Counted from the first letter of the stretch, positions 10,733 through 16,209 are shown. The stretch is 64,000 bases of DNA from an uncultured Chlamydiae bacterium (GCA_963754655.1 CAVWGN010000001.1:1344001-1408000); one strand, 5' to 3'. Translations and numbers: made by a program. The notes: a model not told the origin generated them from the letters alone.

Positions 10733-11887
10733 TGCATATGGATTCTACAAACGAACTGGTGGAAGGGACTATTAGCCCCTATTTTCATTAATGTAACTTC
10801 AGTTGTTGTTGTAGGGAGTATTCTCATTGGAACGACAACTCTCATGATGGACACGAGTCTATATCTTTTACTTAAAGAATATTCTAATTTTTATTTCTGG
10901 ATTTTAACTTTTTTGATTACTACTCTTATTACAATTAGTATGAAGGATTTGCACTCACTCTTTATTGCGAAACACACGGGTTTGTAAAACCAAACTTATT
11001 CTTCCTTCTTTTTCTCGCATTTGGTTAGGTTTAAATCCTGCAAATTTACTTAGCGTTGCTATTGCTTTTTTTCCATATTTGCCAATGAATAGGATAAGCA
11101 TGCAGAGTCTTTTTACTAAAAATATTTGACCAAACATGCTATTTAGCTTGTTTACTTATTGAGCATTTAACTTTTGAATTTTGCAAGTATCTCTAAAGTA
11201 TTCAAGATCACGATCTTCAATATAAATTATCCTTTTAATTATGGTATGCTTTTGTTAGTGTAACTAAAGCTCTATAAAATTTTTTTTGAATCAATGTTTA
11301 AATTTAAAAAGGAATTATATGAATGTAGGAAGTTTAACTAGTCATAATTTCAGTGCGGAGCTAATAGCACCTTCCACTTCTAAGGCAAAAAAGATTAAGA
11401 AAAAATGGACGGCGGCTGAAAATACTCAATTAACTCAGTATGTTCAAGAATTTGGAAAAAATTGGAAGAAAATTGCACAGCACATGGTTGATAAAGATCC
11501 TACTCAATGTAATCTTCATTGGATACGTGAATTGAAGCCTACCCTCACAAATGGAAGAAGATATGGAAAATGGTCAGCAGAAGAAAATGAGCAATTGAAA
11601 AAGCTCGTGAATCAGCACAAGAAAAATTGGGTAGAGATAGCCAAACACATTCCCGGTAGGACGAATAATCAGTGCAGGGCACATTATGAGAGGCTTTTAA
11701 GACCAGATATCAATCATGGACTTTGGACAGCAGAAGAAGATGAGCGATTACAGGAAGCCGTTCAACGCATCGGATTTGGCGCGTGGGGGCAATGGAGTGC
11801 CATTGCAAATGAGTTGCCTAATAGACTCGCTTTTCAATGCTCAAACCGCTGGTACACATTGAATAAAAAATCCAATAAGCATACTAG

Positions 11888-12725
11888 GGAGCGTACCTAA
11901 AAGATTAACCATTGTATAATACAAGCGATCGTCAACATTCCTGCATAATTTTGAGCTTTCATTTCGTATCTTATTCCAATACGCCTAAATCGTTTTATAA
12001 ACTGAAAAAAATTTTCTACCAAGCAACGCTCTCTGTAGATATGTTTATCATGTTCAATTAGTTCAGCTCTTGATACTTTGCTGGGTATGACTGCTTGACT
12101 TCCCATCTTTTCTATAAAATTTCTGATTTCATTTGAGTCGTAAGCTTTATCAGCTATAACATTTTTTGGATTTTTTCCACTGAGTAAAAGCTTCATTTGA
12201 GTGCTCTCGTGTACTTGACCTTCTGTCAAGATAAAATCAATACAACGACCTAATCCATCTGTTACTGCATGAATTTTTGTGGTTGTTCCGGCCCTTGATT
12301 TTCCCATGGCTTCTTCGGCTTTTTTTTTATCCTACAAGCATCTTGATGCGCTTCAACAATTGAGCTGTCTACAGAGTAATTTTCTTCGTCAATTTCATCT
12401 TTTAAAGCTTGCCAAATCGTTTGCCAGATTCCAGCCTTTGTCCATCGATTAAAGCGATTATAACATGTGCTCCAAGGACCATACTTGGGTGGTAGATCCC
12501 TCCAAGCGGCTCCTGTTCTTAAAATCCAAATAATGCCTTCTAAAATCTTACGATGAGGCCGACTTGGTCTGCCCCAATATCCTCGTTCTTTTGGCAATAA
12601 AGGTTTTATTTTTATCCATCTTTCATTAGTTAATACTATCCTACTCATTCAAATTTCCCCCTTGTTTTATCAGAGAAAATTATAAATCATAAGAGTTATT
12701 ATTTTAAATCTTTTAGGTACGTTCC
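11888..12725 (-). mobile_element. IS5-family (IS427-group-like) insertion sequence
   Basis: TIRs GGAGCGTACCTAAAAGATT / AATCTTTTAGGTACGTTCC (18 of 19 match). CTAG is duplicated at 11884-11887 and 12726-12729. Two overlapping ORFs. Confidence 0.93.
11897..12648 (-). CDS. IS5 transposase in two ORFs (12262..12648 and 11897..12307), probably joined by a -1 frameshift
   Basis: OrfA has GIIWILRTGAAWRDLP..YGPWSTCYNRFNRW; OrfB has TTKIHAVTD, IADKAYDS and YRERCLVENFF..KRFRRI..RYE. An A9G slippery run lies in the overlap. Confidence 0.9.
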
Positions 12726-13582
12726 CTAGAAACGAAACAGATGATAAGTCTGTTAATTAAAAAAATTTAAAAAAATTTAAGAAAGATGTGAATCCTGATT
12801 CTAAATTCACGATATACCCTCCTATTCTGAATCCCACAAACTTGAATCAATCTGCCTCTCAAAAAGTTGAGCAGTCGCTAGGTTCTATTGATTTTAATTC
12901 TACTTTTCAACCCATGGAAAGTCTTATTGATGGAGATTTTAAGTTTCCACAAACTGATCAATATTCATTTCTTAACAATCATACTTCTCAATTATTATTG
13001 AATTCGGACGAAGCTATTCCTAGCCATATAAATTCTATACAAGAGGATTTGACGACTTCTTCAATCGGGCAGTTAGAAGCTGTTTTTATGAATTTTAATA
13101 ATCCGCAAGCGGTGACTTCACCTACTGATCACTCTATTTTAATCCCTGCAGGTGAAGATTTGACTACGCCACCATTTAATCAAGACATAGAACCTAATGA
13201 AATCAATGATTTTATGAATCAAATTTTAATAGATTCTATGACATTCGATTTGGATAGACTGGTTGAAAATCCCTGCGATTGGTGATCCATAAGCAGGTCA
13301 ATGTTGACTTAGTGGACTTTTGGCAAATTTTAGCCACCACTCATCAATAAAAAAAGCCATAGGTGTTAAAATTGTGTTAGAAGGAAATGAACCTTAACTC
13401 TTAATTGTGACTATTTTTTTAAATTGATTTCTATTCCTTGTTCATTTAATATGCTTTTTTTGATTCAAAATTATGATCTTTAATTCAATATAATTATCTT
13501 GTTAATTTTGTTTATTTTTTTTTGTTTTAAATAAAAATTTATAAATTTTTTTTAATTAATATTAAATTTAAAAAGGAATCAT

Positions 13583-14785: not shown

Positions 14786-15084
14786 TTCACAAGCAGGTCA
14801 ATGTTGACTTACTAGACTTTTGACAAATTTTAGCCGCCACTCAATAAAAAAGCCATAAGTATAAAAATTGTATTATAAGTAAATAAAGGTTAACTCTTAA
14901 TGATTACTAATTTTTTTAAATTGATTTCTATTCCTTGTTCATTTAATATGATTTTTTTTTGATTCAAGATCAATATCGTTAATTCAATATAATTATCTTG
15001 TTAATTTTATTTTTTTTGTTGTTGTTTTTAGATAAAAATTTATAAATTTTTTTTAATCAATATTTAAATTTAAAAAGGAATCAT

Positions 15085-16209
15085 ATGAATGTAGGAAGCT
15101 TAAATAGTGATAATATCAGTGCGGAGCTTATAACACCTCCTATCTCTAACGAGAATAAGACCAGGAAAAAATGGACAGAGGCTGAGAATGCTCAATTAGC
15201 TCAGTATGTTCAAGAATTTGGAGAGAATTGGCATAAAATTGCAGAGAACATGCTTGGTACAACCCATATTCAATGTAAGTATCATTGGGTACGTGTATTG
15301 AAGCCTACCCTCACAGATGGAAGATATGGAAAATGGTCTGAAGAAGAAGATGAGCAATTGACAAGGCTTGTGAATCAGCACAAGACAAATTGGATGGAGA
15401 TAGCCAAACACATTCCTGGTAGGACAGCTTCTCAGTGCAGGGAACGTTATGAGAGGTCTTTAAGACCAGGTATCAATCGTGGACCTTGGACAGCAGAAGA
15501 AGATGAGCGATTAAAGGAAGCCGTTCAACGCATCGGATTTGGCGAGTGGGGACAGTGGGTTGCCATTGCAAAGGAGTTGCCTGGTAGAATAGCTTCTCAA
15601 TGCTCAAATCACTGGAAAACATTGAATACATCATCTAAGAAGCGTACTAGAAAAGAAGTAGATGAGTCTATTACTAAAACAAATGTAAAAAAATTTAAAA
15701 ATGTTGTAGATCCTGATTTTGAATTCAGCATACCTCCTCCTATTTTGAATCCCACAAACTTGAATCAATCTCTCCCTCAAAAAGTTGAGCAACCACTAAT
15801 TTCCATTCATTTTAATTCTATTTTTCAACCAAAGACAACTCTGACTGCTGAATATTCTAACTCTCTACCGACTCATCAATATTCATTTCTTACAACCCAG
15901 TATGCTCAATTATTGAATGCGGACAAAGTTATTCATAGCCATACAAGTTCTATACAAAGGAATCGAACGACTTCTTCCCATTTGGAGCAGGACTTAGAAG
16001 CTGTTGTGATAAATTCTAATACTCCGCAAGCAGTGGCGTCGCCTGCTGATCCCTCTAGTTTAAACCCTATGGGTGCAGATTTGACTATGCAACCGCAACC
16101 ATTAAATCAAGAGATAGAACCTGATATAGAACCTAAAAATCAAGAGATAGAAACTAATAAAGTCTATCATTTTATGATTCAAATTTTAATGAATTCAATG
16201 AAAGGCTAA
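15085..16209 (+). CDS. Eukaryote-like 3R-Myb protein, copy 3 (374 aa)
   Basis: Same three-repeat layout (GRTASQCRERYE, RGPWTAEEDERL), a SKKRTRK basic patch and a diverged C-terminus. Confidence 0.92.
   Translation: MNVGSLNSDNISAELITPPISNENKTRKKWTEAENAQLAQYVQEFGENWHKIAENMLGTTHIQCKYHWVRVLKPTLTDGRYGKWSEEEDEQLTRLVNQHKTNWMEIAKHIPGRTASQCRERYERSLRPGINRGPWTAEEDERLKEAVQRIGFGEWGQWVAIAKELPGRIASQCSNHWKTLNTSSKKRTRKEVDESITKTNVKKFKNVVDPDFEFSIPPPILNPTNLNQSLPQKVEQPLISIHFNSIFQPKTTLTAEYSNSLPTHQYSFLTTQYAQLLNADKVIHSHTSSIQRNRTTSSHLEQDLEAVVINSNTPQAVASPADPSSLNPMGADLTMQPQPLNQEIEPDIEPKNQEIETNKVYHFMIQILMNSMKG

Follow-up and report, generated by a model that had tools for sequence, protein, structure and literature searches.

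We have analysed a 64,000-nucleotide stretch of DNA from an uncultured Chlamydiae bacterium (GCA_963754655.1 CAVWGN010000001.1:1344001-1408000), referred to here as the window, and find that positions 11319-16209 hold three head-to-tail units of about 1.5 kb, each built around a gene for a protein with three eukaryote-type Myb repeats, with hemL on the left and nfeD on the right. Copies 2 and 3 are intact and copy 1 is interrupted by an insertion sequence (IS). Counted over the whole genome of this amoeba-type chlamydia, the family has 15 genes with 83 repeats on one modular plan, and it was seen in no other genome searched. We suggest below that its members may be effectors acting in the nucleus of the host. 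The parts of the array are as follows.

11319..11887, plus strand: N-terminal part of Myb copy 1 (N-terminus and three repeats), cut by the IS and reading on to a TAA at 11898-11900 (three PF00249 stretches, E 1.3e-41)
11888..12725, minus strand: IS5-family IS of 838 bp, with orfA at 12262-12648 and orfB at 11897-12307 (PF13340, PF01609, NF033580)
12726..13285, plus strand: C-terminal part of Myb copy 1 (basic linker and tail), with a TAA in frame at 12758-12760 (78% identical to copy 2 residues 189-400)
13286..13582, plus strand: spacer between copies 1 and 2, AT-rich, with AAGGA at its end 5 nt before the ATG (88.7% identical to 14786-15084)
13583..14785, plus strand: Myb copy 2, intact, 400 amino acids (open reading frame; three PF00249 stretches, E 7e-40; AlphaFold2 model)
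14786..15084, plus strand: spacer between copies 2 and 3 (repeat families and alignment)
15085..16209, plus strand: Myb copy 3, intact, 374 amino acids, 62% identical to copy 2 (open reading frame; three PF00249 stretches, E 2e-42)
16210..16292, plus strand: spacer remnant after copy 3, the end of the tandem unit (repeat family and alignment)

The direct-repeat families of this region occur as three copies in register, with start-to-start distances of 2264 and 1499-1503 nt, and the units are 63-94% identical to the reference copy. The longer distance is explained by one unit of about 1.42 kb together with the 838-bp IS and a 4-bp duplication. The two spacers are homologous (260 of 293 aligned bases identical, 10 gap columns), and about 70 nt of the duplicated spacer sequence are still present 3′ of copy 3. 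AAGGA lies 5 nt upstream of the ATG in each Myb copy, and the GC content is 32-36% in the array and 39-42% in the flanks. A preliminary description of this DNA had reported three tandem units of about 1.5 kb with duplicated spacers and AAGGA ribosome-binding sites between hemL and nfeD. The units are borne out by the repeat families and open reading frames (ORFs), the spacers by their alignment, the flanking genes by Pfam and the AAGGA sites by reading of the sequence. We suggest that the three units arose by tandem duplication of a single gene. A consensus scan for promoters and terminators gave 14 promoter-like sites, which is fewer than the shuffle mean of 22.8, and no terminator 3′ of the Myb genes. 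A look-up of RNA data sets listed none containing this stretch, which has no bearing on whether the genes are expressed.

The three proteins score 135.3, 143.5 and 140.9 bits against PF00249, for which the gathering cut-off is 24.4, and each contains three matching stretches, so that the HMMER comparison with Pfam Myb_DNA-binding proposed in the preliminary description came out as predicted. The repeats are Myb units of 50-54 residues. Their aromatic pattern is W/W/W in R1, W/W/Y in R2 and W/W/W with a 3-residue insertion in R3; the tryptophan-spaced repeats announced earlier are thus present in the stated number, but the third aromatic residue of R2 is Tyr and R3 carries the insertion. No Pfam family besides the Myb-type models matched the Myb proteins at E <= 0.01, and no NCBIfam model exceeded its threshold, the match to SHAQKYF being sub-threshold only. 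In the AlphaFold2 model of copy 2, which was built on a 22-row alignment and has a mean pLDDT of 63, the three repeats form nine helices at a pLDDT of about 90 or more, and residues 1-26 and 188-367 are disordered. The protein can be divided as follows.

13583..13660, plus strand: copy 2 residues 1-26, unstructured N-terminus, candidate type III secretion signal (pLDDT 51-56, no secondary structure)
13661..14140, plus strand: copy 2 residues 27-186, Myb repeats R1, R2 and R3, nine helices, net charge +12 (Pfam, AlphaFold2, Foldseek)
14141..14218, plus strand: copy 2 residues 187-212, basic linker KKRTR...KKFKK, possibly like a nuclear localisation signal (NLS), net charge +6
14219..14782, plus strand: copy 2 residues 213-400, acidic disordered tail, net charge -22 (charge, alignment, AlphaFold2)
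14236..14304, plus strand: 12-nt repeat (ATACCCTCCTAT, six times) encoding YPPI repeats, in copy 2 only (TRF)

The same succession of charges is found in copy 3, where the DNA-binding domain (DBD) has a net charge of +5, the linker +2 and the tail -7. The N-terminal segment has a high content of S, T, P, N and Q (38-50% together), and in copy 2 it has neither a hydrophobic core nor a hydrophobic signal peptide. The S/T/P-rich N-terminus of the preliminary description therefore stands as regards composition, but it is only about 26 residues long. The tail of copy 2 matched nothing in Pfam or the ESM Atlas, and near its end a helix is predicted at residues 368-391 (14684-14755) with a conserved EINNF/INDF motif. 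The YPPI region is a 19-codon insertion in copy 2 relative to copy 3 and contains several P-P-x-Y strings, which we take to resemble the eukaryotic WW-domain-binding PPxY motif.

Copy 1 starts at the ATG at 11319 (the ORF listing gives an upstream TTG at 11286), and its N-terminal part is 77% identical to copy 2 over residues 1-193. Its open pieces are 11319-11900 and 12788-13285. As it is split by the IS and also has an in-frame TAA, copy 1 is a pseudogene, and of the three Myb genes first described only copies 2 and 3 are intact. The inserted element has 19-bp terminal inverted repeats with one mismatch, CTAG is duplicated at 11884-11887 and 12726-12729, and orfA and orfB overlap at an A/T run. 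Both transposase halves match NF033580 from NCBIfam (133.4 and 140.9 bits, cut-off 110). With a DDE transposase, inverted repeats and a short target duplication, the element belongs to the IS5 family, as had been proposed. The chromosome contains 23 full-length copies of it at 95.7-100% identity among 24 BLAST hits, and since several of these are identical to the one in copy 1, the insertion must be recent.

The array in the window is a small part of a larger family. The count of 15 ORFs and 83 Myb repeats was obtained with a profile hidden Markov model of the copy 2 repeats, and tblastn gave 43 matches; the members lie at six separate places on the chromosome. The repeat types follow a fixed order, with one R1, 1-12 R2 and one R3, which can be written R1-(R2)n-R3. 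The genes in the window form the n = 1 subfamily, whose tails are longer by an inserted stretch of about 55 residues. Within the genes, R2 is repeated in tandem as a unit of 153 nt, with 2 to 11.3 copies at a match of 80-89%. A 17-kb tandem array at C1:1211906-1228922 contains eight Myb ORFs with 2, 3, 6, 8, 8, 9, 9 and 14 repeats, and dispersed members with 5, 6 and 3 repeats are found at C1:1632932-1634134(-), 2466266-2467741(-) and 2583469-2584401(+), together with a broken copy with a TGA at C1:2447083-2447522(-). The 17-kb array was formed by duplication of the 153-nt R2 unit inside genes, and it is bordered at one end by YidC and an ORF with a RhoGEF domain. At its other end lie a kinase/FGE-sulfatase fusion, a phosphatase and an outer membrane protein of the Protochlamydia type (Pom). 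A copy of the IS lies about 600 nt from the member at C1:1632932-1634134(-).

All full-length paralogs share an N-terminus of the form MN[IV]G[IS], common to 14 Myb ORFs or fragments, followed by a lysine-rich lead-in to R1. They also share the basic linker, which reads KK..R..E, 10-15 residues and KKFKK, with KKFKK kept in 12 of the 13 aligned tails. The tail blocks align throughout the family, and the C-terminal [EK]IN[DN]F motif is found in every full-length paralog. N-terminus, linker and C-terminal motif are still conserved although the DBDs of the paralogs are only about 40-55% identical. The arrangement noted for the array, in which a basic motif and an acidic tail follow the DBD, is real and common to all paralogs. 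We infer that the family is derived from eukaryotes and has expanded in a lineage-specific manner within this chlamydial genome. We also considered whether the N-terminal signal is shared with two non-Myb TPR proteins beginning with MNIESSS, and rejected this, five residues being too few. The two TPR ORFs (C1:2345545-2347458 and 2349978-2351351) are paralogous, start with MNIESSS and have a basic PRKRIK string near the N-terminus.

The genes on either side of the array are the following.

9431..10732, plus strand: class-III aminotransferase in the hemL position, a bacterial housekeeping gene, left flank (PF00202, E 2.6e-70)
16432..18717, plus strand: NfeD1b-type membrane protease, right flank (PF25145, PF24961, PF01957)

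Orthologs of the aminotransferase are found in five out of five related genomes searched, with 62-85% identity. Among genomes of the same genus, hemL and nfeD are neighbours in G001 only, where asd and a DUF202 gene separate them. Neither G002 nor G003 has nfeD inside the roughly 8.6-8.8 kb 3′ of hemL, and in G002 hemL is followed by ORFs of the PD40 beta-propeller, Rce1-like and LRR types. As the gene order 3′ of hemL varies in all three genomes of the genus, the site appears to be prone to rearrangement.

Since Myb repeats are a eukaryotic domain, we asked how far the assembly can be trusted. The window lies within a 3.12-Mb contig of a two-contig genome of 3.16 Mb with 38.8% GC. Public reads were consulted in the form of Logan contigs of two runs, one of them a soil-metagenome run, the only good public match, which may be the source sample. 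In that run a 343-nt contig (16154-16496, 100% identity) leads from the end of copy 3 into the start of nfeD, and the other matches are short fragments at 100% identity; the contigs of the second run cover essentially the IS only. A public contig of 846 nt corresponds exactly to 11884-12729, i.e., the IS with its CTAG flanks. The junction check thus holds for copy 3 and nfeD, while the junctions between hemL and copy 1 and between the IS and the Myb sequence are without a bridging public contig. Host eukaryotic DNA misjoined into a bacterial assembly could account for these unbridged junctions and for the nature of the domain, but we consider this extremely improbable. The array is placed between bacterial genes on a large contig, one join is directly covered, and AAGGA sites are present. 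In agreement with the preliminary description, host contamination is very unlikely, given the six chromosomal places of the family, the resident IS in copy 1 and the intron-less genes.

Outside this genome we find little that resembles the family. With copy 2 as the query, three genomes of the same genus gave no match, 24 of the same family gave two, both weak, and 16 from other families of the order gave none at E <= 1e-5. Among 1.84 billion representative proteins, the only matches with at least 50% identity were four proteins of this genome itself, two of them confirmed by sequence and two matched to ORFs of this genome by length only. All other matches had at most 46% identity. At the top of the non-self matches are metagenome multi-Myb proteins, whose high scores result from their many repeats, and named matches with a single DBD are scattered over plants, an oomycete and a labyrinthulid at 35-39% identity. 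Searches with family-specific R1 peptide patterns returned no relative from public genomes, metagenomes or viral contigs.

The Myb domain itself is more widespread. Of 401 genomes sampled from the phylum, this one included, 17 have a PF00249 match above the cut-off, which leaves 16 of 400 others. Within the family the figure is 10 of 45 other genomes, and among 14 control genomes it is zero. The Myb ORFs of those other phylum genomes are divergent and not orthologous to the family in the window, and their occurrence indicates that the theme may be wider than this genome. At least seven two-repeat Myb-like ORFs of 130-280 amino acids stand in tandem in one genome from another genus of the family (G209:C3:73500-83000), most of them with a KRQK/KRPK-type basic motif between the repeats. 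In N-terminus and tail these ORFs are unrelated to the family described here. Expansions of other eukaryote-like domains have been published for amoeba-associated chlamydiae.

Could the proteins be bacterial regulators or nucleoid proteins working on the chlamydial chromosome? The repeats are of the helix-turn-helix kind, and the genes are equipped like bacterial ones, with AAGGA sites and no introns. On the other hand, the lack of matches in the genus and the two weak ones in the family place these genes outside the conserved chlamydial regulatory set, and the conserved NLS-like linker, the acidic disordered tail and the C-terminal motif have no obvious bacterial role. Tandem and intragenic expansion with fast evolution is furthermore typical of host-interaction genes. 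We therefore regard a role on the bacterial chromosome as distinctly improbable.

Copies 2 and 3 differ by a dS of 0.24, with an overall dN/dS of 0.84. By region the ratio is lowest in the N-terminus (0.34 over 26 codons), with values of 0.75 for the DBD, 1.03 for the linker and 1.11 for the tail. The overall ratio, along with the double inactivation of copy 1, the fragments at C1:2447083-2447522 and the low GC content of the array, would speak for decaying, functionless remnants of a horizontally acquired eukaryotic gene that were spread by unequal recombination. We find this account very doubtful. In a neutral simulation, in which only substitutions were modelled, the share of trials in which a frame of 400 codons stayed open was 1.4% at 0.06 substitutions per site and 0.04% at 0.12, which argues that copies 2 and 3 have been kept open by selection. 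The coding indels between the two copies are all in frame, whereas the 293-nt spacer alignment contains its 10 gap columns. Scaffold columns of the repeats have dN/dS values of 0.37-0.53, and the N-terminus, linker and C-terminal motif have outlasted the divergence of the DBDs.

The pattern of variation within the repeats is also informative. Five contact columns were set a priori by alignment to the base contacts of c-Myb (PMC3203581), and when the 46 columns of 53 R2 repeats are ordered by entropy, they take ranks 1, 2, 4, 5 and 7. Their entropy sum was not reached by any of 100,000 five-column sets drawn at random. In the contact columns dN/dS was 1.07 in R2, against 0.37 elsewhere in the repeat, and the corresponding values were 2.70 and 0.40 for R1 (n = 13) and 1.09 and 0.53 for R3 (n = 12). 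Purifying selection thus acts on the repeat scaffold, and variability is highest at the positions predicted to contact bases. This argues that the repeats are working Myb units with the face of helix 3 as ligand surface, and it suggests that the paralogs may have diverged in target preference. We had entertained the idea that hypervariability of the contact residues is unique to this family and dropped it, because other multi-Myb proteins have the same pattern. Variability of the contact columns is general behaviour of Myb arrays, and no special code is shown by it.

What, then, could such proteins be for? The genome encodes a type III apparatus, as judged by one match to the SctV/FHIPEP export gate (E 5.2e-227), as well as four ATP/ADP (TLC) translocases and Pom, and together these genes indicate an obligate-intracellular environmental chlamydia. 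We hold with moderate confidence that the best reading of the Myb proteins is a family of putative effectors that would be directed to the host nucleus. The proteins would be exported by the type III system with the N-terminus as signal, and the basic linker would carry them into the nucleus of a protist host. There, the Myb array could use the third helix of each of its repeats to bind chromatin or DNA of the host, and the tail may recruit host factors, so that host transcription would be altered. The restriction of the expansion to one lineage is usual for effector families and favours the effector reading, and the tandem array of two-repeat Myb-like ORFs in the other genus offers a parallel case.

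Several observations weigh against a family of nuclear effectors. Copy 1 is dead and two further family fragments exist elsewhere in the genome, and the high dN/dS between copies 2 and 3 could mean relaxed constraint. The Pfam model for HrpJ/CopN has no match in the genome, although its control also matched nowhere. The shuffling statistics overstate significance, since the repeats compared are kin, and in 63 repeats of eight metagenome multi-Myb proteins the contact columns rank 1, 10, 2, 3 and 4. In the large paralogs the R2 repeats are slightly acidic, with a net charge averaging -0.5, unlike strong DNA binders, which leaves room for a non-DNA role in these large paralogs. Finally, the conserved base-contact residues of c-Myb are Lys128, Glu132, Lys182 and Asn183 (PMC3203581), and in copy 2 the residues aligned with them are Tyr, Asp, Ala and Gly.

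The last two points lead to an alternative in which the proteins are exported but do not read DNA, and SANT-like or decoy repeats bind histones or the proteins with which host Myb factors associate, in order to titrate or mislocalise them. The loss of the c-Myb contact residues would fit this, as would the net charge of the large paralogs, which in R3 averages -1.4, and weak sub-threshold matches in Pfam to SANT_DAMP1_like and Myb_DNA-bind_7. The face of helix 3, moreover, would be a variable surface whatever the ligand. Against this, the DBDs in the window are basic, the closest solved relatives are all DNA-bound Myb domains, and copies 1 and 3 retain Asn at the Asn183 position. We consider decoys rather unlikely, and continue to prefer effectors that bind host DNA or chromatin.

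A more far-reaching version of the nuclear-effector reading, which we think unlikely as it stands, is that this chlamydia has developed a captured eukaryotic Myb factor into a toolkit of transcription factors that are injected and keep diversifying. Acting on a protist, they would be functional analogues of the TAL effectors, based on Myb repeats. In such a toolkit one chassis, consisting of the N-terminal signal, the NLS-like linker and the acidic tail with its helix, would bear arrays of 3-14 repeats, and the number of repeats together with the contact residues of helix 3 would direct the proteins to different sites of the host genome. The toolkit might serve to steer host programmes under Myb control such as encystation, which in amoebae has been linked to Myb factors in the available portions of two reports (PMC10887745, PMC4053983).

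Other features of the window may be mentioned briefly. Five tandem ORFs of 428-529 amino acids at 55249-63800 have 7-9 DUF4116 repeats each, and one further DUF4116 ORF lies at 35189-36238, making DUF4116 another expanded repeat-protein family in the window. The most AT-rich part (22% GC at 37001-38000) contains a 458-amino-acid ORF without a Pfam match on the minus strand (36486-37862). A Mutator-family transposase at 46265-47467, plus strand (PF00872, E 2e-143), represents a second type of mobile element.

Among known proteins, the family is close to c-Myb and SNAPC4 without being either. Like the eukaryotic 3R-MYB factors c-Myb, B-Myb and plant MYB3R, the window proteins have three adjacent three-helix Myb repeats, and c-Myb (1h88_C) is both the top sequence match among solved structures (E 1.1e-23) and the top Foldseek match (E 6e-9), where 154 columns align to the 152-residue chain. 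The phmmer alignment is one repeat off register, however, with R2R3 of the query paired with R1R2 of c-Myb, and only the Asn at the Asn183 position (R3) is retained, in copies 1 and 3. The C-terminal regulatory domains of c-Myb have no match in the window proteins by Pfam, or for the tail in the ESM Atlas. MYB3R-5 of Hondaea is among the top matches with a single DBD. All three repeats align to SNAPC4 in one stretch (SNAPC4 362-515, E 5.8e-22), whose middle aligned repeat has Tyr for the third Trp like R2 in the window, and SNAPC4 (7xur_A) is the second Foldseek match (E 3e-8, identity about 33%). SNAPC4, also called SNAP190, is the Myb subunit of the snRNA-activating complex, a protein of more than 1000 residues with four and a half Myb repeats, and its long N- and C-terminal regions have no counterpart in the window proteins, which have 374-400 residues and three repeats. 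The third Foldseek match is Trichomonas Myb2 (3osf_A, TMt 0.85). Pfam, the AlphaFold2 model with Foldseek and the matches to solved structures thus confirm the eukaryote type of the tandem repeats, as originally claimed, but the further assignment to the R1R2R3 c-Myb type is not supported, in view of the off-register alignment, the lost contact residues and an equally good fit to SNAPC4. As the family corresponds fully to neither, we regard it as an orphan three-repeat Myb lineage.

In the literature that we searched, on chlamydiae, nucleomodulins and Legionella effectors, we found no report of a chlamydial Myb effector and none of a Myb-type bacterial effector, and the family appears to be unreported for chlamydiae. 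The closest functional class would be that of the chlamydial nucleomodulins NUE and SinC, described in a review as type III effectors acting in the host nucleus, NUE being a SET methyltransferase and SinC an inner-nuclear-membrane protein; Myb comes up once in this review, as the host target MYB30 (PMC7819608). Myb-like transcription-factor genes read as acquired from eukaryotes have been described for clostridial endosymbionts of termite-gut protists. These belong to a different phylum, and the passage on them describes neither an expansion, be it in tandem or within genes, nor a conserved N-terminus, nor a motif resembling an NLS (PMC10579323).

Intracellular bacteria are known to deliver enzymes and scaffold proteins to the host nucleus, and beyond the TAL effectors, few effectors resemble a full transcription factor whose DNA-binding domain was borrowed from eukaryotes. 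The effector interpretation of the Myb family is plausible on the sequence features given here, and the family stands out by its size, its modularity and its restriction to one lineage. If the proteins are indeed delivered to the nucleus, bacteria would be able to capture, multiply and diversify a host transcription-factor fold in order to reprogramme a eukaryotic cell. The resemblance to the TAL effectors of Xanthomonas and Ralstonia is one of layout only: the genome has a type III system, and the Myb family combines an unstructured N-terminus, a variable number of repeats (3-14), an NLS-like motif and an acidic C-terminal tail. TAL effectors are built of TALE repeats of 33-35 residues with repeat-variable diresidues, a family that did not appear in our Pfam scan, whereas the Myb family uses an unrelated repeat fold without a code of one repeat for one base.

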